In this document: positions 2,400 through 42,291 of the stretch, piece after piece
Position numbering within the stretch: position 1 is the stretch's first letter
Layout of the letters: each line of letters begins with the position of its first letter
Assembly: GCA_040390045.1 (NCBI GenBank)
Contig: JAZJZC010000004.1
Span: forward strand, 579-64,578
Length of the DNA: 64,000 nt
DNA from: Patescibacteria group bacterium
GTDB taxonomy: Bacteria > Patescibacteriota > Minisyncoccia > Phycocordibacterales > SIBU01
Direction: 5' to 3'
The notes under the pieces: model-generated
What the model was told of the DNA's origin: nothing
The model's input: only the letters and a program-made list of their open reading frames with translations
The model's database searches: none
Position numbers and translations under genes: made by a program

Positions 2400-2486
2400 G
2401 GAGAGATGCCAGAGCGGTCGAATGGGCCACCCTGGAAAGGTGGTATGTCCGAAAGGGCATCGAGGGTTCGAATCCCTCTCTCTCCG
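2400..2486 (+). tRNA. tRNA-Ser (anticodon GGA), type II long variable arm
   Basis: Hand-folded structure: acceptor GGAGAGA/TCTCTCC, anticodon stem CCACC/GGTGG with loop CTGGAAA, long variable arm, T-arm GAGGG-TTCGAAT-CCCTC. Confidence 0.8.
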
Positions 2487-2491
2487 CAATG

Positions 2492-2528
2492 AACCGCGCG
2501 AAAGTCTAAACGACTTTCGCGCGGTTCA
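2492..2528 (+). terminator. perfect hairpin aaccgcgcgaaagtc-taaac-gactttcgcgcggtt immediately after tRNA-Ser
   Basis: A 15 bp perfect stem is visible in the sequence. Confidence 0.5.
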
Positions 2529-2535
2529 TCATTGC

Positions 2536-2657
2536 GTGGAGAGGGAGGGATTCGAACAGCAGAGTAAAATTTTTAGCAGAAAATTTTGTGAGCTGGTGCC
2601 CAGCCCGAGTTCGCTGACGAGCGAACGAGAGGTGCGGGCGAATCTCCTACCCTCCGC
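2536..2657. repeat. tRNA-3'-associated element, copy E1 (cognate tRNA-Ser GGA)
   Basis: Starts with the reverse complement of the tRNA-Ser T-arm/acceptor (ggagagggagggattcgaac). Ends with a direct copy-like sequence (ggcgaatctcctaccctccgca). Contains the shared core gagctggtgcccagcc...gagtcg...ttttctgct(a/g)aaaaa (reverse complement). Confidence 0.6.
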
Positions 2658-2714
2658 AATAGAGTTTTGATAAGAGTGTGACTTGAGTACCTAAAAGGAT
2701 CACTTTAAGTTAGA

Positions 2715-3179: not shown

Positions 3180-3482
3180 ATGTTTTTTGGTATATTTGGT
3201 TGGGGAAAGAAATCCAGGAGATGGCCAATTGGCGAGGGTAAAGAACTCGTTGCGACATGGTCTTATTTTTCGCTAAATTTCGTGGCTCTTGCGTGGGCGA
3301 TACATTGGTACGTGATTGGAGAAAATCGTTCGGAAGACCGAGAGGTCACATACGACGAAGTTAAAGCACTTTTCCCTCAAAATACGCCGCATCTTACTAG
3401 CCTGGAACAATACGGCCTTTGGTGGGTAATCGGTGCTACCGCCTTACTTGTTATCTACGCTTTTGCAAATCGACAGTGGTAA
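3180..3482 (+). CDS. hypothetical small membrane protein
   Basis: ORF of 100 aa with two hydrophobic segments. Confidence 0.4.
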   Translation: MFFGIFGWGKKSRRWPIGEGKELVATWSYFSLNFVALAWAIHWYVIGENRSEDREVTYDEVKALFPQNTPHLTSLEQYGLWWVIGATALLVIYAFANRQW

Positions 3483-3938: not shown

Positions 3939-4580
3939 ATGACTAGTTGGTACCAAAAAAATATTGTTCCTCGTTTGCTCAATTTTGAAATGGGCGGAGA
4001 TGATTTGGAAAAGATCCGCCGTGTAGTTTTAGAGAAAGTAAAAGGCGCGGTTTTAGAAATTGGTGTGGGGCCGGGCTACAATTTTGCATTGTATAAAAAT
4101 ATTTCAAAATTATTTGCCCTCGAACCTTCGAAAGAACTTATCGAGATTGCCAAAACCCGTCTTGGTTCAACGTCATTTCCTATTGAATTTTTAAATACAG
4201 GAGCGGAACATATTCCACTGCCGGATCACTCTGTCGATACAGTAGTATCAACATGGACACTTTGTAGTGTTTCAGATCCTAGAAAGGTGTTGAGTGAAAT
4301 CAAACGCGTACTTCGCCCCAGCGGTAGTTTTATTTTTGTTGATCACGGAGCTTCACCTAATTTTTTAATTCGAATGATTCAAACTGCCTCAACATTTTTT
4401 ACTAAATATTTTACGGGCAATTGTCACTACGATCGACAACTTGAGAAATTGATTAGAGGAGCCGGTTTTGATATTAAGAAAATTGAGCACCCACGCGAGG
4501 GCTTTAAACTTTTGATTTATAATTTTCAAGGTGTTGCTATTCCAGTAAATTTGGAAACTAAGTTTCCAAATTTAATTTAA
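3939..4580 (+). CDS. class I SAM-dependent methyltransferase
   Basis: Motif I (VLEIGVGPGYN) and post-I/II motifs (VDTVVSTWTL...VLRPSGSFIFVDH) are present. Confidence 0.7.
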   Translation: MTSWYQKNIVPRLLNFEMGGDDLEKIRRVVLEKVKGAVLEIGVGPGYNFALYKNISKLFALEPSKELIEIAKTRLGSTSFPIEFLNTGAEHIPLPDHSVDTVVSTWTLCSVSDPRKVLSEIKRVLRPSGSFIFVDHGASPNFLIRMIQTASTFFTKYFTGNCHYDRQLEKLIRGAGFDIKKIEHPREGFKLLIYNFQGVAIPVNLETKFPNLI

Positions 4581-5320: not shown

Positions 5321-7216
5321 TCACTTTTGATCAGGAGTCTCAAGCATTTTCAAAAGCTCAGAAGTTTTAGCGGTTGCTACGCCGACAACTAAATCTGCCG
5401 CACCGTAGTAGAAAAATAACGTATCACCGCGCTCAATCACTCCACAGGGGAAAACTACGCCGGGCACGATACCTTTCCATTCATAATCTTCAACTGGTTC
5501 AAAAATCGGAAAGACGGAACGGGCGAGCACCACTGTCGGATCATTTTTATCTAGAAGAGCTACTCCGACTCGGTAATGTGTGGTGTTTGAGACACCGTGA
5601 TAAAAGAATAACCAACCTTTTTTAGTTTCAACTGGTGGACAGGCCAGGCCAATTCTGCCGCCATCCCACATGCCGCGACGAGGGTGGAGGAGTGGAATAC
5701 AGGTACGTACTGGTTCATTTTTCCAATCGAGAGAATCGACAAAGTCGGCGCAGATCAAATCATCAATACGGTGAATAATCATGTACTTGCCATTTATTTT
5801 TTTCGGGAGAATACAGGCATCTTTGTTGCCCACGGAAGCAAAGGTGATGAGACTTGGCGTTGACCAATTCCACTCGCCGTTTTGCAAATCTTTGACCGAG
5901 ATAGATGTACCGGCAACGCGAGGCGTGTTGCCATCGTACGCGGTGTAGAAAACATGAACACGATCTTTGATGAGTGTGGCGCGTGGGTCTTCACAACCCT
6001 TACTTTCAAAATCAACACGCGGAGTATAAATAGGTTTTTCTGATCGTTCGTCAATTGAAAAACCATCAAGCGACGTGGCGAGGCCGAAAGTTGAAATGTT
6101 GTCGCTCGAAACTGCGCGATAAAAAATATAAATTTTACCGTCAATTTCTACTGAGGCCGGATTAAATGTACCACGAGTTTCAAAGGCTTTATCGGGGCGG
6201 GGACTGATGATCGGATTATTTGGTCCGCGAACAAAAAGTGGCTTTTTCTCTACCATTGAGGCGAGGAATTTTTTTAAGTTGACGCGGGCGATGCAGGAGT
6301 GAGTATCAGCCGCACCGTAATAGATTTCTAAATTTTCGTCGGAAATTATGGCGCCGGTTGGGAAAATAATGTTTGGCACTTGCCCGACGCGTTCGTAATA
6401 TTCTTCAGGCACCAAAAATGAACCCTTGGTTCTGCCAATGATAAGACGCGGATTGTTTTTGTCCAAAAGTAGGGCTTCCACACCAAAACTTCGGTCACCT
6501 TGAAAATAATTTTGAATATGAGAGTACACCACAAGCCAGCCGAGCGACGTCAGAATGGGCGGCGCGCCGAGTTCCACTTGTTCGTTATTTCCGCGACGAA
6601 CGTTTAGGGTATGAAGAGAAATATCTCTTTTCCATTTCTCCCAAAACTCGGGATTCCACATGTCAGATTCTTTTTCGAATTCAACGTAGCAGATTTCAGA
6701 CGGCGGTTCGTCGGTGCGAATGGTAAGGAGTGCTGCGAATTTACCACCAATCTTTTTTGGAAACAGCGCCATGGCTTTGGCGTTAAAGGGAGTAATGGAA
6801 TGTTTCTCCATAATTTCCATTTTCTCGTTGACTTTGGCGAGAGCAATACGAATACCGTCTTTTTGAACGGGGTACATTGAAAGTGCGGTATAAAAAATAT
6901 AGTGAATTTTGTTGAAGGTAGTTACTCGAGCATCTTCACAACCGAATTTTTCCCACTCATGTTCGGGAGTGATGAATTCTTGACGATTGTCGAAATGCTG
7001 ACCGTCAGAACTTTGCGCCAGCCCGATCGTCGACACTGAACGTCTCACTCCGTCTTGCAGTTTCGATTCAGATTGCGCGCGATACACAGCGGCTGTTACG
7101 GGAGATTTTCCAACTGGAGGAATTGGACACCAATTAAAACTGCCAGCGGATTCCCATTCGTGGTGAACTTCGGGGGAGAGGATTGGATTGTGTTTATCGC
7201 GTTCAATTACAAACAT
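5321..7216 (-). CDS. glycoside hydrolase family 130 protein (glycoside phosphorylase-like), tandem two-domain
   Basis: Two GH130 repeats, each with NP(I/L)LSP, GCEDPR/GCEDAR and YYGAAD motifs. 631 aa. Confidence 0.7.
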   Translation of the reverse strand: MFVIERDKHNPILSPEVHHEWESAGSFNWCPIPPVGKSPVTAAVYRAQSESKLQDGVRRSVSTIGLAQSSDGQHFDNRQEFITPEHEWEKFGCEDARVTTFNKIHYIFYTALSMYPVQKDGIRIALAKVNEKMEIMEKHSITPFNAKAMALFPKKIGGKFAALLTIRTDEPPSEICYVEFEKESDMWNPEFWEKWKRDISLHTLNVRRGNNEQVELGAPPILTSLGWLVVYSHIQNYFQGDRSFGVEALLLDKNNPRLIIGRTKGSFLVPEEYYERVGQVPNIIFPTGAIISDENLEIYYGAADTHSCIARVNLKKFLASMVEKKPLFVRGPNNPIISPRPDKAFETRGTFNPASVEIDGKIYIFYRAVSSDNISTFGLATSLDGFSIDERSEKPIYTPRVDFESKGCEDPRATLIKDRVHVFYTAYDGNTPRVAGTSISVKDLQNGEWNWSTPSLITFASVGNKDACILPKKINGKYMIIHRIDDLICADFVDSLDWKNEPVRTCIPLLHPRRGMWDGGRIGLACPPVETKKGWLFFYHGVSNTTHYRVGVALLDKNDPTVVLARSVFPIFEPVEDYEWKGIVPGVVFPCGVIERGDTLFFYYGAADLVVGVATAKTSELLKMLETPDQK

Positions 7217-26290: not shown

Positions 26291-26361
26291 GCGGGTATAG
26301 TATAGTGGCAATATGCGTGCTTCCCAAGCATGAGACGCGAGTTCAATTCTCGCTACCCGCA
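26291..26361 (+). tRNA. tRNA-Gly (anticodon CCC)
   Basis: Acceptor GCGGGTA/TACCCGC, anticodon stem CGTGC/GCATG with loop TTCCCAA, T-arm GCGAG-TTCAATT-CTCGC. Confidence 0.75.
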
Positions 26362-26519
26362 CACGTATAAAACATCGACAGATGTTTTATACGTGTGCGG
26401 GAATTGAAGCCCGATTGAGCATTTTTTCTAGTTTCTGAACGTAGAAAAAATCCAATCGCGGGTACTGAAACTGTAAGTTTCGATTCTCCCTATCCGCACA
26501 ATTACATTATAAAATTTAA

Positions 26520-29766: not shown

Positions 29767-29839
29767 GCTTGGGTAGCTCAGTTGGTAGAGCATTCCCCTG
29801 AAGAGGGAAGGGTCACCAGTTCGAATCTGGTCCCAAGCA
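29767..29839 (+). tRNA. tRNA-Phe (anticodon GAA)
   Basis: Acceptor GCTTGGG/CCCAAGC, D-arm GCTCAGTTGGTAGAGC, anticodon stem TTCCC/GGGAA with loop CTGAAGA, T-arm ACCAG-TTCGAAT-CTGGT. Confidence 0.85.
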
Positions 29840-29868
29840 CAAATGAGCGGAGCGAATTGGCTTGGGAA

Positions 29869-30092
29869 GCACGAGAATAATTTCTCGTGAGTCCAGATTC
29901 GAACGCCGGAACGATGCCGAGCCAGCAGGCGAGGCCGTGAGGCGGTGGCCAGAAAAATTTTTTTGGCGAAAAAAATTTATTCGCGGCCGAATCTGTTCCT
30001 ATTTTCTCACCAGAAGAAACTGGCGAGCTGGTGGGCAGACCGGGGTGAGTGACGACGAACCTTGAGTCGCGCCCGAATCTGTCCCGCCCAAG
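29869..30092. repeat. tRNA-3'-associated element, copy E2 (cognate tRNA-Phe)
   Basis: Begins with gcttggga[hairpin]ccagattcgaac, the reverse complement of the tRNA-Phe 3' end with a hairpin inserted. Ends gcccgaatctgtcccgcccaag (direct copy-like). Contains the shared core gagctggtgggcagacc...gagtcgcgcccgaatc. Confidence 0.6.
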
Positions 30093-39087: not shown

Positions 39088-39681
39088 TCAATTTTTCTCA
39101 ACATCTTTTTTCAACATTGCTCGTCGAATCATAAGCATCACGCTAAAGGCTAGGTTGGCAAGTACCCAAGTAATTGGATACAGCAGTGTGAGAATATTAA
39201 ATTGCTGCAATGCAAAAATACTCAAGCCGTGGCGAATAGTAGTTATCTGATACATAAATAAGGTTTCAGAGTGAGGTTCCTTCCAGGATTTTCGTATGGT
39301 TGGGAAAAAACCAAAAACATCGGTTGAAACGATAAGGATAACGGACAATACCGGTTGTTTTGCAAAAATCCAAAGAGCCAAAGAAGTAAGAGCGAGAAAG
39401 AGAAAAGCCAAATCTAGTTTGGTAATCTCTTTATTTCCATTTCGTATAGAAAGTAGAAGAACTATAAAACAAATAGTCGCGGTGACACCAGTTGTCCACG
39501 CTCCAACTCCAGCACCACCGCTAATTTGCAGAGCCCAAGAAATAGTAACAGCGAGAGTCCACACGAGCCAGGAGAAAATATGCGGGACCGTTTTTCCTTT
39601 TACAGTGTCACGAATATACGGAGCGTATCCGACAAAGACAAGCGTGACTGCGACCAAGCTAATAATAATTTTGTAGTCCAT
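39088..39681 (-). CDS. hypothetical membrane protein
   Basis: 197 aa with 6 predicted TM helices. Confidence 0.45.
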   Translation of the reverse strand: MDYKIIISLVAVTLVFVGYAPYIRDTVKGKTVPHIFSWLVWTLAVTISWALQISGGAGVGAWTTGVTATICFIVLLLSIRNGNKEITKLDLAFLFLALTSLALWIFAKQPVLSVILIVSTDVFGFFPTIRKSWKEPHSETLFMYQITTIRHGLSIFALQQFNILTLLYPITWVLANLAFSVMLMIRRAMLKKDVEKN

Positions 39682-39689
39682 TTTATAAA

Positions 39690-39844
39690 GGCGGAGGAGG
39701 GGGTGAGATTAGGTCACAAGTATTTTCTTGCTAGAAAATCTTGCGACCCCGCCTCGCGCCGTCGCGCTCCGGCTTTCGAATCCCCCTCCTTGCTCGCAAT
39801 GATGAACTGCTCGGACTTCGTTTAGAAGTCCTTACAGCTCATTG
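39690..39844. repeat. tRNA-3'-associated element, copy E4 (cognate tRNA-Ser CGA on minus strand)
   Basis: The far end (ggcggaggagggggtgagatt) is a reverse-complement copy of the tRNA 3' end. The middle contains an opposite-strand T-loop/acceptor copy (ggctttcgaatccccctcc) and the gcgac...gtcgc hairpin seen in other copies. More divergent than E1-E3. Confidence 0.45.
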
Positions 39845-39931
39845 CGGAGGAGGGGAGATTCGAACTCCCGAGGAGCTTTCGCCCCTGCCGGTTTTCGAAA
39901 CCGGTACATTCAACCGCTCTGCCACTCCTCC
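39845..39931 (-). tRNA. tRNA-Ser (anticodon CGA), type II
   Basis: Minus-strand sequence GGAGGAG..ACCGG-TTTCGAA-AACCGG..long variable arm..GGGAG-TTCGAAT-CTCCC-CTCCTCC-G. Confidence 0.7.
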
Positions 39932-40038
39932 GTGGATTGTGTGGATAATGCTAACACTTTTTGCTAATTTTACAAAAAATGTTATTATTTCCTCGTCTTT
40001 AATATGTTCCATGTTTTATGTTTATGGTTCATGTTCTT

Positions 40039-40110
40039 GGCTCTATCGTCTAATGGTTAGGACACGGCCTTTTCAAGGCTGGAATCGGGGTTCGACTCCC
40101 CGTAGAGTCA
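40039..40110 (+). tRNA. tRNA-Glu (anticodon TTC)
   Basis: Acceptor GGCTCTA/TAGAGTC, anticodon stem CGGCC/GGCTG with loop TTTTCAA, T-arm CGGGG-TTCGACT-CCCCG. Confidence 0.65.
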
Positions 40111-40310
40111 CAAAAATAATGAGGGCGTTGCGAAGCAATGACGGATTTTATTTTTGTAGACACTGCGGGGAGTCGAAGGACGGAGCGGAATGAGACTCAG
40201 CAGAGTCGAACCGCGAGTCGGGGTCGCGGAAATTTCTGAGCGAGGGCGAAGAAATTATCTGTGACCGAAAGCGTACTCGCGGCTCCCAGTTAAGGTCACA
40301 AAAGCGGTTT
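40111..40310. repeat. tRNA-3'-associated element, copy E5 (cognate tRNA-Glu)
   Basis: Contains gcggggagtcgaaggacgg (reverse complement of the tRNA-Glu T-arm), the core-like agagtcgaaccgcgagtcggggtcgcgg, and a distal gtcacaaaagcgg resembling the tRNA 3' flank. Confidence 0.45.
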
Positions 40311-41836: not shown

Positions 41837-41909
41837 GGGCGGTTAGCTCAGTTGGTAGAGCATCTCATTGACGTTGAGAGGGTCAGAGGTTCGAATCCTC
41901 TACCGCCCA
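41837..41909 (+). tRNA. tRNA-Val (anticodon GAC)
   Basis: Acceptor GGGCGGT/ACCGCCC, anticodon stem TCTCA/TGAGA with loop TTGACGT, T-arm AGAGG-TTCGAAT-CCTCT. Confidence 0.85.
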
Positions 41910-41926
41910 CATTGAGTCCACGAAAT

Positions 41927-42082
41927 GTGGGCGGTAAGGAGGCAAATTGTTTTGCCTCCGTGAGGATTCGAACAGCGGAACCATGTTTTTTCAGCAGAAA
42001 AAACAGGTGAGCTGGTGTCCAGACCAAAGTGAGCGACGGCGAGCTTTGAGTCGCGGGCGAATCCTTTACTTCTACCGCCCAC
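41927..42082. repeat. tRNA-3'-associated element, copy E3 (cognate tRNA-Val)
   Basis: Begins with gtgggcggtaagg (reverse complement of the tRNA-Val acceptor 3' end) and ggattcgaac. Core: caggtgagctggtgtccagacc...gagcgacggcgagc...gagtcgcgggcgaatc. Ends ttctaccgcccac, identical to the tRNA-Val 3' end. Confidence 0.65.
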
Positions 42083-42291
42083 AAAATCAGAAATAAAGTT
42101 TGTCCTCGTCCTATCCCGTCTCGGACTACCTCGTCGGGTAATAGGCGAGGAACCGGGGCAAACTTTGTTGTAGATGTGTCGGCTCCGCCGATTCATGCGT
42201 GCGTTGCGGATTCATCCCCGCCACAGACGGACGGGTGTTCTCCGCAGTTACAATAAAAAACCTCCGCCTAAGCAGAGGTTGGGGACAGAGA

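Follow-up and report, generated by a model that had tools for sequence, protein, structure and literature searches.

Folded elements bounded by inverted and direct copies of tRNA 3' ends follow most tRNA genes in a Patescibacteria contig

The stretch of 64,000 nucleotides analysed here (the window; positions 579 to 64,578 of contig JAZJZC010000004.1, assembly GCA_040390045.1, from a Patescibacteria group bacterium) contains seven tRNA genes detected by ARAGORN and Rfam, namely Ser-GGA, Gly-CCC, Arg-CCT, Phe-GAA, Ser-CGA (minus strand), Glu-TTC and Val-GAC, and six of the seven are trailed at their 3' side by an element of 100-250 bases. An earlier note on this DNA had placed five of these elements (E1 to E5) correctly, but it counted eight tRNA genes and missed a sixth element after tRNA-Gly. 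By inspection of the sequence, tRNA-Arg-CCT is the only tRNA gene of the window with a plain terminator instead of an element. In the following, the 3' segment within the tRNA gene itself is designated S1, and its inverted and direct copies S2 and S3, respectively; the variable hairpins are called hp0, hp1 and hp2, and P1, P2 and P3 are the helices of a junction in the core. Bit scores refer, except for the tRNA gene, to the covariance model R1, which was built from the cores designated type A. The tRNA genes with elements and the elements themselves are arranged as follows:

2400..2487, plus strand: tRNA-Ser(GGA), host of E1 (ARAGORN; Rfam RF00005, 57 bits).
2488..2535, plus strand: spacer of E1, a palindromic hairpin (CAATGA, stem, TAAAC, stem, TCATCATTGCG) without T tract (sequence read).
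2536..2659, plus strand: E1, type A, with S2, three-way-junction core at 2549-2645 and decayed S3, without hp0 (R1 89.4 bits, E=5e-19; three-way end comparison).
26291..26362, plus strand: tRNA-Gly(CCC), host of a type-C element (ARAGORN; Rfam).
26363..26500, plus strand: type-C element (sequence read).
29767..29840, plus strand: tRNA-Phe(GAA), host of E2 (ARAGORN; Rfam).
29841..29999, plus strand: E2a, tRNA-proximal, type A, with spacer loop GAGCGGAGCGA, S2, hp0 and core at 29896-29994 (R1 95.4 bits; sequence; alignment).
30000..30092, plus strand: E2b, a distal, partly decayed type-A core (30000-80), then S3 at 30075-30092 (GAATCTGTCCCGCCCAAG) (R1 39.4 bits, E=8e-7; sequence).
39690..39843, minus strand: E3, type B, on the same strand as its tRNA (sequence).
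39844..39931, minus strand: tRNA-Ser(CGA), host of E3 (ARAGORN; Rfam).
40039..40111, plus strand: tRNA-Glu(TTC), host of E4 (ARAGORN; Rfam).
40112..40310, plus strand: E4, type B (weak R1 match at 40170-40272, 27.1 bits, E=8e-4; sequence).
41837..41910, plus strand: tRNA-Val(GAC), host of E5 (ARAGORN; Rfam).
41911..41926, plus strand: spacer of E5, 16 bases, forming a perfect palindrome with the flanking tRNA end and S2, ACCGCCCACATT / AATGTGGGCGGT (sequence).
41927..41973, plus strand: left end of E5, with the acceptor part of S2 at 41927-36, hp0 at 41938-59 and the T-stem/T-loop part GTGAGGATTCGAAC at 41960-73 (sequence; end comparison).
41965..42064, plus strand: type-A three-way-junction core of E5, with P1, P2 with hp1, and P3 with hp2 (R1 103.5 bits, E=2e-22; pair counts).
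42058..42083, plus strand: right end of E5, S3, consisting of CGAATCCT, TTACTT and CTACCGCCCACA (sequence; end comparison).

E5 illustrates how closely the ends of an element follow the tRNA gene. The tRNA-Val gene ends with ...GGTTCGAATCCTCTACCGCCCA and C, and GTGGGCGGTA (41927-41936) is the exact reverse complement of its acceptor 3' strand, the discriminator and one further nucleotide. After hp0, a perfect hairpin of 22 nt with the loop AAATTGTTTT (41938-41959), the T-stem 3' strand and T loop reappear in reverse complement as GAGGATTCGAAC (41962-41973). The proposal that each element starts with the reverse complement of T loop and acceptor 3' strand is thus exact for tRNA-Val, and the direct copy of the tRNA 3' end that was described at the far side is present at 42058-42083, where it is broken by 6 nt.

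Read in the direction of the tRNA, a type-A unit begins with the tRNA ending in S1, which extends from approximately T-loop position 56 to the 3' end, followed by a palindromic spacer between tRNA and S2. Read by eye, the spacer is a canonical bidirectional terminator (A-tract, hairpin, T-tract) in about 14 of 23 loci, and in others a short hairpin capped by GAGC-GNA-GCGA, a GCGNAGC-type cap. S2 repeats trailer, discriminator and acceptor 3' strand in reverse complement and is usually separated from its T-stem part by hp0 (loop AACTGCTT; absent in E1 and in the related loci L147 and L056), after which GTG and the complement of the T-stem 3' strand follow. The junction has the sequence GATTC, GAA, CAGC-G-GA-GC (hp1) GC-GA-GCTG, GT, GCCC-A-GAC (hp2) GTC-GC-GGGC, GAATC. 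Here, P1 (GATTC/GAATC) is made from the T-loop copies, P2 (CAGC/GCTG) carries a bulged G and tandem G·A pairs and leads to hp1, and P3 (GCCC/GGGC) leads to hp2. S3 contains the 3' strands of T stem and acceptor, the discriminator and a trailer of 1-14 nt. An alignment of the cores showed that the hairpin stems differ in every copy, while GCGAAGC-type hairpin caps recur among copies.

The window has five occurrences of the core motif CTGGNCACCAGCTCAC, whereas 0.53 are expected and none of 100 shuffled sequences reached five, and the best window copies match R1 with E-values of 1e-19 to 1e-22. A core shared between elements of unrelated tRNAs, as postulated in the earlier note, is therefore present above chance, but in the form of two related types: Type A is found in E1, E5 and two tandem copies in E2, whereas E3 and E4 contain a sister core, type B. 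The view that E1, E2 and E3 represent the core most clearly has to be revised in this respect. Type B shares only the 5' half with type A, keeping GATTCGAAAG-NC-GGAGC...GCGAG, while its third arm, GGTCGCAAG...CTTGTGACC, is different. In E3, the spacer hairpin and S2 are followed by GATTCGAAAGCCGGAGC, a GCGACGGCGC hairpin, GAGGCGGGGTCGCAAG, another hairpin, CTTGTGACC, TAATC and S3 (CTCACCCCCTCCTCCGCC). The S2 of E4 (CGGGGAGTCGAA) matches the variant T loop TTCGACT of tRNA-Glu and is succeeded by a decayed direct copy, CTCCCAGTTAAGGTCACAAAA. After tRNA-Gly, a third type, C, consists of a palindromic spacer, the inverted copy TGCGGG..AATTGAA, a core of GCCCGATTGAGC, an AT-rich hairpin and CCAATCGCGGGT, and the direct copy TTCGATTCTCCCTATCCGCACA; both copies match the variant T loop TTCAATT of tRNA-Gly-CCC, and R1 gave no match to this element at 26363-26500. 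Comparison of the sequences also showed that the spacers of E1 and E3, both located after tRNA-Ser genes, are homologous. Since their cores differ, the modules of the elements recombine. In the E2a core, P2 has the base CGCC:GGCG and P3 the base GGCC:GGCC. The copies at 2549-2645, 29896-29994 and 41965-42064 have GTGAG in common, in contrast to GCGAG in almost all other genomes. In E5 and E2a, a compensating GGAAC stands in place of GGAGC, and the two copies in L076 share GAGAAC and GGCC:GGCC. Derived states that are common to the copies of one genome point to spread within the genome or to gene conversion.

When a three-way junction was written onto a MAFFT alignment of 22 hand-aligned cores, 91.4% of the cells paired, compared to 75% in column shuffles, and 22 of 36 pairs showed compensatory (two-sided) change; sliding the partner by 1-3 columns lowered pairing to only 34-45%. 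The covariance-model search that had been recommended as a check yielded 51 matches to R1, related Patescibacteria genomes included. In the model-derived alignment of 39 copies, 31 of 36 pairs showed compensatory change (297 compensatory cells), and slides of 1-3 columns paired at 35-45%; this alignment was fitted to the model and is hence biased towards the structure, but the hand-made alignment agrees with it. Covariation is visible in helix P2 (CAGC:GCTG, CGCC:GGCG, CGAC:GTCG) as well as in P3 (GCCC:GGGC, GGCC:GGCC, GGGC:GCCC). The core thus has a three-way-junction fold.

The earlier note had read this structure on the strand opposite to the tRNA, but the pair counts and the free energy place the fold on the tRNA strand. 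Among the cells that are not Watson-Crick pairs on the tRNA-sense strand, 22 are G·T and only 3 A·C, and 50 are G·A and only 2 C·T. The G·A cells are tandem pairs at fixed sites, namely the base of P2, where the motif of bulged G and tandem G·A is invariant, and the apex or foot of hp2. In type B, all five copies with a GGTCGC/GTGACC stem, E3 included, hold a G·T at one position. Because the G·T and G·A pairs would become destabilising A·C and C·T mismatches on the other strand, we assign the folded molecule, be it RNA or single-stranded DNA, to the tRNA-sense strand, on which the minimum free energy was also lower for all five window copies. A test for G·U bias limited to the three hairpin stems was uninformative, since 643 of 650 pairs in hp0, hp1 and hp2 are Watson-Crick; the asymmetry becomes apparent only when junction helices and internal loops are included. 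In view of the strand-asymmetry counts, we also dropped an opposite-strand, tRNA-like reading in which CUGCUAA would be the anticodon loop of a Ser-GCU tRNA. We do not claim a k-turn for the P2 motif, in which the bulge has 1 nt instead of 3. Changes in the loops of hp0 and hp1 fit a kissing contact (CUGCU with AGCAG; UUGUU with AGCAG via G·U; UAC with GUA in L130), which is suggestive in several copies but fails in L003, L069, L100 and L122.

Also the order of strands on the tRNA-sense side mirrors a tRNA, with an acceptor-5'-like strand, a single 'body' hairpin (hp0), a T-5'-like strand, a junction in place of the T loop, and then the 3' strands of T stem and acceptor together with the discriminator. 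The elements share this order with plant-mitochondrial t-elements, mascRNA, the tRNA-like domain of transfer-messenger RNA (tmRNA) and viral tRNA-like structures. Unlike in these tRNA mimics, the T loop is replaced by a junction of 100 nt, acceptor pairing is not under selection and the tRNA-clan models of Rfam fail. Of the tmRNA-like architecture with an unpaired T stem that had been suggested, it is correct that the T stem is not formed, but neither ARAGORN nor Rfam called a tmRNA in the window or the related loci, and pairing of the acceptor is not maintained. With ARAGORN, and with Rfam at gathering score as well as at E<=10, the seven true tRNAs were the only ones detected, and neither strand of the elements gave any. 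It is highly improbable that the opposite strand encodes a tmRNA-like, minihelix-mimic or antisense RNA acting on the 3' half of the tRNA, for example on its processing, CCA addition or cleavage by RNase Z. By symmetry, the complementary ends are present on that strand as well, and the bidirectional terminators would stop a convergent transcript just as they stop the tRNA. However, 22 G·T and 50 G·A would there turn into A·C and C·T mismatches, all five window copies fold less stably there, and hp0 would break into the 3' strand, where a tRNA has nothing. In addition, no promoter was predicted to the right of E5, where a minus-strand terminator is located at 42280-42259, no tRNA, tmRNA or tRNA-like family was detected by ARAGORN or Rfam, and S2 and S3 show 65 one-sided but only 2 compensatory changes, as detailed below.

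The proposal that the flanks track each tRNA was confirmed by local-alignment scores, which were 9.5 for the right and 10.0 for the left ends with the cognate tRNA, compared to 4.9 and 5.5 with non-cognate tRNAs. The flanks are genuine copies of tRNA sequence and not plain terminators devoid of it. Two tRNAs with wobble pairs revealed that S2 complements the tRNA 3' strand and is not a copy of the 5' strand: The tRNA-Val of L125 has G3·U70 and its S2 carries A, and the tRNA-Arg of L076 has U5·G68 and its S2 carries C. Both S2 and S3 start within the T loop near position 56 and extend a few bases past the 3' end, and the ends also match variant T loops (GAGTC in L076 Arg, GATTC in L125 Glu, GACTC in the window Glu and CAATTC in the window Gly). 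The direct copy is without mismatch in E5, L003, L014 and L069. When an 11-nt probe for the tRNA 3' end was used with at most one mismatch, a direct copy was found downstream of 14 of 36 tRNAs from the Candidate Phyla Radiation (CPR, Patescibacteria), compared to 1 of 12 non-CPR tRNAs.

At 23 loci, S1, the complement of S2, and S3 were compared with each other by a crude pairwise alignment that left 106 further positions in gaps. All three agreed at 214 positions, only S2 differed at 33 and only S3 at 32, whereas both differed at 4 positions in a non-compensatory and at 2 positions in a compensatory manner. With 65 one-sided versus 2 compensatory changes, S2 and S3 decay independently from a tRNA-identical start, and this comparison gave no sign of selection that keeps an acceptor-like helix. 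Because the two copies decay independently, the ends are duplications made at the birth of the unit and not a maintained minihelix or tRNA mimic. The presence of T-loop and acceptor sequences might be taken to indicate decayed tRNA pseudogenes or remnants of tandem tRNA duplications, but we regard this as the least credible of all explanations, since the left end is complementary to 3' strand and trailer and is not copied from the tRNA 5' strand, no remnant of a D-arm or anticodon arm is present, and the covariation of the core across CPR lineages cannot be the result of random decay.

Sequences for comparison were initially collected with the pattern GATTCGSSCGCN{25,55}CACCAGCTCRC in one genome per species, a pattern too loose for genomes with high G+C content. 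About 110 of the 120 genome-scan matches listed and the single viral match were chance matches in coding DNA. Among the matches listed that lie within 400 nt of a tRNA, almost all are in Patescibacteria bins, each just 3' of the tRNA; L105, a bin with 69% G+C, has a further tRNA-adjacent pattern match without a match to R1. A stricter pattern retrieved 27 further metagenome loci, and all those inspected are true copies. Bins with true copies include at least Saccharibacteria, Uhrbacteria, Nomurabacteria, one 'Patescibacteria group' and one bin labelled only 'bacterium', and true copies were so far found only in Patescibacteria. R1 had no match in 752 kb of non-CPR loci, each of which matches the raw DNA pattern. 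Approximately 38 of the 51 R1 matches have a tRNA on the same strand upstream, with the first core of an array starting 41-85 nt past the tRNA, and none of the 51 adjoins a tRNA in the opposite orientation. The hosts are tRNAs for Ser (four anticodons), Tyr, Pro, Ala, Lys, Val, Phe, Ile, Arg and Glu, to which the type-C copy adds Gly, and one conserved core serves at least 13 tRNA species. Arrays of the A-A type or mixed from A and B are common, and in three clear A-A arrays the tRNA-proximal copy scored better than the distal one (95 vs 39, 69 vs 45 and 81 vs 65 bits). In L147 and L122, copies are placed between tRNAs of one operon.

Comparison with tRNA loci of relatives, which had also been proposed, showed that the occupancy of a given tRNA species varies between genomes. 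tRNA-Glu has a type-B element in the window, type A in L125 and none in L056, and the element of tRNA-Ser-CGA belongs to type B in the window but to type A in L056. The divergent gene pair Ser-CGA/Glu-TTC is common to the window and L056, a Saccharibacteria contig. For an orthologous-locus comparison via the NUDIX neighbour of tRNA-Val, the protein was found on only one contig of 1.8 kb. tRNAs without a core are also without S2, namely Arg in the window, Glu in L056, two Leu and Cys in L122, Asn in L141 and Pro-GGG in L147, and no intermediates with S2 only were present among the core-less tRNAs inspected. Therefore, S2, core and S3 arrive together as one package.

The absence of S2-only intermediates argues against a stepwise growth of the palindrome in place. 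Such growth could occur by template-switching during replication at strong hairpins (quasi-palindrome extension), by which the right flank of the terminator would become the complement of the tRNA end and subsequently the right flank of the core the complement of that. Both the almost perfect Watson-Crick pairing of the hairpin stems and the near-perfect long palindrome of tRNA end, spacer and S2, centred on the terminator loop, would be in line with this process. Nevertheless, we consider it very unlikely: every core-less tRNA seen also lacks S2, an S3 copied from S2 would follow the changes in S2, which only 2 positions do versus 65 one-sided ones, both copies begin at one T-loop position, and the location of the cores beside tRNAs would remain without explanation.

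We tentatively favour, with slightly less than an even chance of being right, that the elements are integrated copies of a small, protein-less repeat element that lands at tRNA 3' ends and that, because it is without coding capacity, would be non-autonomous. A pre-formed unit of S, spacer, S2 and core might insert by a crossover within the segment from the T loop to the 3' end. This crossover could be site-specific or could be a homologous recombination after uptake of DNA, for which the tRNA body would provide one homology arm and S3 the other. Insertion would restore the tRNA with the S segment brought by the element and would shift the former 3' end beyond the element as S3, giving the geometry of attL and attR sites. 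On the folded sense strand, S2 could pair with S to form a long hairpin, the stem of which would reproduce the duplex end of the tRNA gene, and the conserved core may be the site recognised by a conserved host or trans-acting factor on a folded single strand, either DNA or a read-through transcript. Of the two options offered in the earlier note, a tRNA-targeting or att-duplication element fits best, given that the ends are true copies that decay independently, S2, core and S3 form a package, arrays are best preserved near the tRNA and occupancy is polymorphic; a classical miniature inverted-repeat transposable element (MITE) it is not. The antisense or minihelix-mimic RNA, in contrast, is disfavoured by the strand asymmetry, the excess of one-sided changes and the lack of any ARAGORN or Rfam detection. 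The common T-loop start of both end copies suggests a defined crossover point.

Several observations weigh against a mobile origin, and mobility remains an inference. No recombinase, transposase, integrase, HUH nuclease or reverse transcriptase was found with Pfam among the 56 open reading frames (ORFs) of at least 110 aa in the window. All window ORFs with Pfam matches have housekeeping functions (for example FtsZ, MES2088097.1; FtsA, TrxB-like, aminoacyl-tRNA synthetases, RNR, LepA, MnmA, TsaD), and about 20 of the 56 are unmatched. Neither a free or circular form nor an empty/occupied pair in close strains was seen, and IMG/VR viral contigs contained no copy with the strict or the relaxed core pattern. 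Copies within one genome diverge in their stems like old paralogues rather than a recent burst, and about 45 junction and loop nucleotides are near-invariant across CPR lineages, a pattern that would sooner be expected from a functional RNA than from selfish DNA. Ends specific for a tRNA would be required in each lineage, and the origin of a new tRNA specificity is left unexplained by insertion. Finally, as judged from the sequence, E1, E2 and E5 must be co-transcribed with their tRNA because no terminator is located between tRNA and element, leaving room for a role as RNA.

Such a role is the main rival explanation, although we consider it less likely than not: the elements could be a functional non-coding RNA module of tRNA transcription units that is read through from the tRNA promoter and binds a conserved CPR protein or RNA, e.g. 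a processing or quality-control factor, with the tRNA-derived flanks as a leftover closing stem. Strong covariation, the sense-specific non-Watson-Crick pairs (bulged G and tandem G·A; the G·U in P3 of type B within the GGTCGC/GTGACC stem), the near-invariant junction and loop sequences across CPR lineages and the compatibility of hp0 and hp1 loop changes with a kissing contact are in favour of an RNA. The same is true for the orientation of the element, which is always that of the tRNA, the copies between tRNAs of one operon in L147 and L122 and the missing terminator ahead of E1, E2 and E5. On the other hand, about 14 of 23 spacers are canonical bidirectional intrinsic terminators directly before the element, leaving no room for a separate promoter, and of about 80 hairpin loops none is a GNRA and only one a UUCG loop. 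Since occupancy is polymorphic per tRNA and distal copies decay, any function would be dispensable, and the acceptor-like stem is not maintained either. Insertion at tRNA genes and a function as RNA are not mutually exclusive.

We consider it unlikely that the elements are categorically new, in which case they would be either single-stranded parasites of viroid size that attack tRNA genes or a new widespread class of CPR RNA. The parasite would be a gene-less single-stranded replicon or satellite of approximately 200 nt, made of DNA or RNA and folded as a dumbbell, in which one arm would be a hairpin with a stem reproducing the duplex 3' end of a specific tRNA gene as attachment site and the other arm would be the three-way junction, recognised by a conserved CPR host enzyme. 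It might spread among CPR bacteria, perhaps helped by natural DNA uptake. In the RNA version, the core would constitute a new widespread non-coding RNA class of CPR bacteria that is built into tRNA operons.

If the elements are insertions, a small structured repeat that is anchored at tRNA genes and has att-like repeats is of an already known kind. Like tRNA-targeting integrative elements and their cis-mobilizable relatives (CIMEs), the elements are located at tRNA 3' ends, have a direct repeat of the T-loop-to-3'-end segment at both ends while the tRNA remains intact, accrete in tandem with the best unit next to the tRNA, show polymorphic occupancy and are gene-less. They differ from CIMEs by a size of 100-250 nt instead of kilobases, by the extra inverted copy of the att segment and by the use of one core for at least 13 tRNA species. 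Moreover, no integrase is present in the window, and whereas excision is known for integrative elements, here only the geometry is observed.

The phage CTX-phi integrates through a folded attP, and integron attC sites are similar in principle. In attC as well as in attP(+) of CTX-phi, which is used by XerCD, a site and a nearby inverted copy of it can pair within one strand, thereby imitating a duplex target, and the structure, including tolerated non-Watson-Crick pairs, is strand-specific. Integration of the CTX-phi type predicts the order hybrid site, loop, inverted site, rest, hybrid site, and the observed order is S1, spacer, S2, core, S3. In contrast to these systems, the site is a T-loop/acceptor segment of a tRNA instead of dif or attI, and no integrase or phage genome is linked to it. 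No integron integrase was found among the window ORFs, and no dif-like or GTTRRRY core site was seen by eye in the sequences read. This comparison can only be suggestive as it refers to geometry, and both the long hairpin of S1, spacer and S2 and the strand-specific non-Watson-Crick pairs of the core would fit an RNA equally well.

Palindrome-associated transposable elements derived from IS200/IS605 (PATEs), repetitive extragenic palindromes (REP) and bacterial interspersed mosaic elements (BIME) are likewise short, protein-less and multi-copy, form near-perfect hairpins on one strand and depend on a factor encoded elsewhere. Unlike the elements described here, which have target copies and hairpin stems that differ in each copy, they make no target duplication, have copy-invariant ends and are conserved only within a species or genus; neither a Y1 transposase (Y1_Tnp) nor a REP-associated tyrosine transposase was present among the window ORFs, which cover 64 kb only. 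Bacterial MITEs such as Correia and Rickettsia palindromic elements are also small, structured and multi-copy and form long hairpins when transcribed. They have identical terminal inverted repeats and short direct target duplications, whereas in the elements the terminal repeats are the target itself, equalling the 3' end of the neighbouring tRNA and thus differing between copies. The elements are also no intrinsic terminators, since the core is without T tract and the spacers ahead of the window elements are not terminators.

In Rfam 15, no family reached its gathering score within the elements, and overlaps at E<=10 were chance-level matches to microRNAs and sRNAs. Full-text literature searches on tRNA repeats, tRNA-like RNAs and structured RNAs of Patescibacteria, Saccharibacteria and CPR found no description of these elements, in agreement with the statement in the earlier note that no element of this organisation has been described, within the literature covered. 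The nearest paper reports group I introns in Patescibacteria tRNA genes and does not describe these elements (PMC13011429). An architecture of inverted and direct target copies around a CPR-wide three-way junction, associated with many tRNA species, thus appears to be undescribed. CPR bacteria account for much of bacterial diversity, and although their genomes are tiny and streamlined, most tRNA genes of the window carry a conserved structured element. If mobile, the element would be an unusually small parasite of tRNA genes with an undescribed att-like geometry of inverted and direct target copies around a folded core, and it would mark recombination hot spots, one island of defence genes being flanked by copies. 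If it acts as RNA, it would be a new, widely distributed class of non-coding RNA tied to tRNA expression in organisms with an almost unexplored RNA biology. With R1, CPR genomes can be surveyed directly, and it offers a starting point for experiments with those few Saccharibacteria that can be cultivated and are naturally transformable.

Some copies are located far from any detected tRNA but nevertheless have ends of the tRNA type. One set of these tRNA-less copies has the acceptor sequence CCGCGGAG, as in the tRNA-Asn of L141, and the copies in L128, L136, L143, L144 and L146 have the ends AACTCCGCGGA...CCGCGGAGTT, which match the acceptor 3' strand of tRNA-Asn (...CCCGCGGAG, L141 10834-10906). 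Group I introns are reported to be frequent in the tRNA-Asn genes of Patescibacteria, and these genes to be missed by standard tRNA finders (PMC13011429). Considering the Asn-type ends, an undetected tRNA-Asn may therefore lie near the tRNA-less copies.

In L143, two direct copies of the type-A core (61-159 and 6615-6713) flank 6.5 kb that encode an Mrr-type restriction endonuclease, a DUF3800 protein and a Vsr endonuclease, a stretch that looks like a defence island. Upstream of several type-A copies, the tRNA is replaced by another conserved palindromic repeat, X (..GGAACATTTTTCT..GTGGCGGAATGATTCATTCC..GTTCGGATTTCGTCGTACAGAGGGAG), which neither ARAGORN nor Rfam recognised as tRNA, tmRNA or any Rfam family. 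Its sites are:

L128, approximately 3350-3480, reverse strand (reverse-complement coordinates): X repeat.
L136, 1-150: X repeat.
L141, 1-120: X repeat.
L143, 160-260 and 6480-6590: X repeats.

The orientation of the core relative to the adjoining X repeat differs between the two ends of the L143 stretch, which suggests that the core was inverted between its inverted flanks. On the reverse strand of L122, a Ser-type fragment, GGGTTCGCCTCCCTCCTCCGCA, is located 3' of tRNA-Tyr (824-910) and represents a foreign tRNA-end copy beside a non-cognate tRNA.

Just 3' of E5, the window contains at 42095-42245 a long hairpin (AAAGTTTG...CAAACTTT) followed by GGCTCCGCCGATTCATGCG...TTGCGGATTCATCCCCGCCACAG, resembling a decayed copy of the T loop and acceptor of tRNA-Val; this region may be an older distal unit of an array. 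The 3' CCA is not encoded in most tRNA genes of the window, including Val, Phe and both Ser, and tRNA-Arg-CCT ends with ...GGCACCA. The tRNAs of the Uhrbacteria locus L076 encode CCA, and the direct copy there ends before CCA. ORFs of 98-150 aa cross the G+C-rich elements at 39526-39825, 39741-40193 and 41900-42196. They are almost certainly spurious, and annotators should be aware that gene callers may report them. L144, a contig that also has a type-A element, contains a LOOT RNA (Rfam RF03000, 84.5 bits) at 4321-4444.

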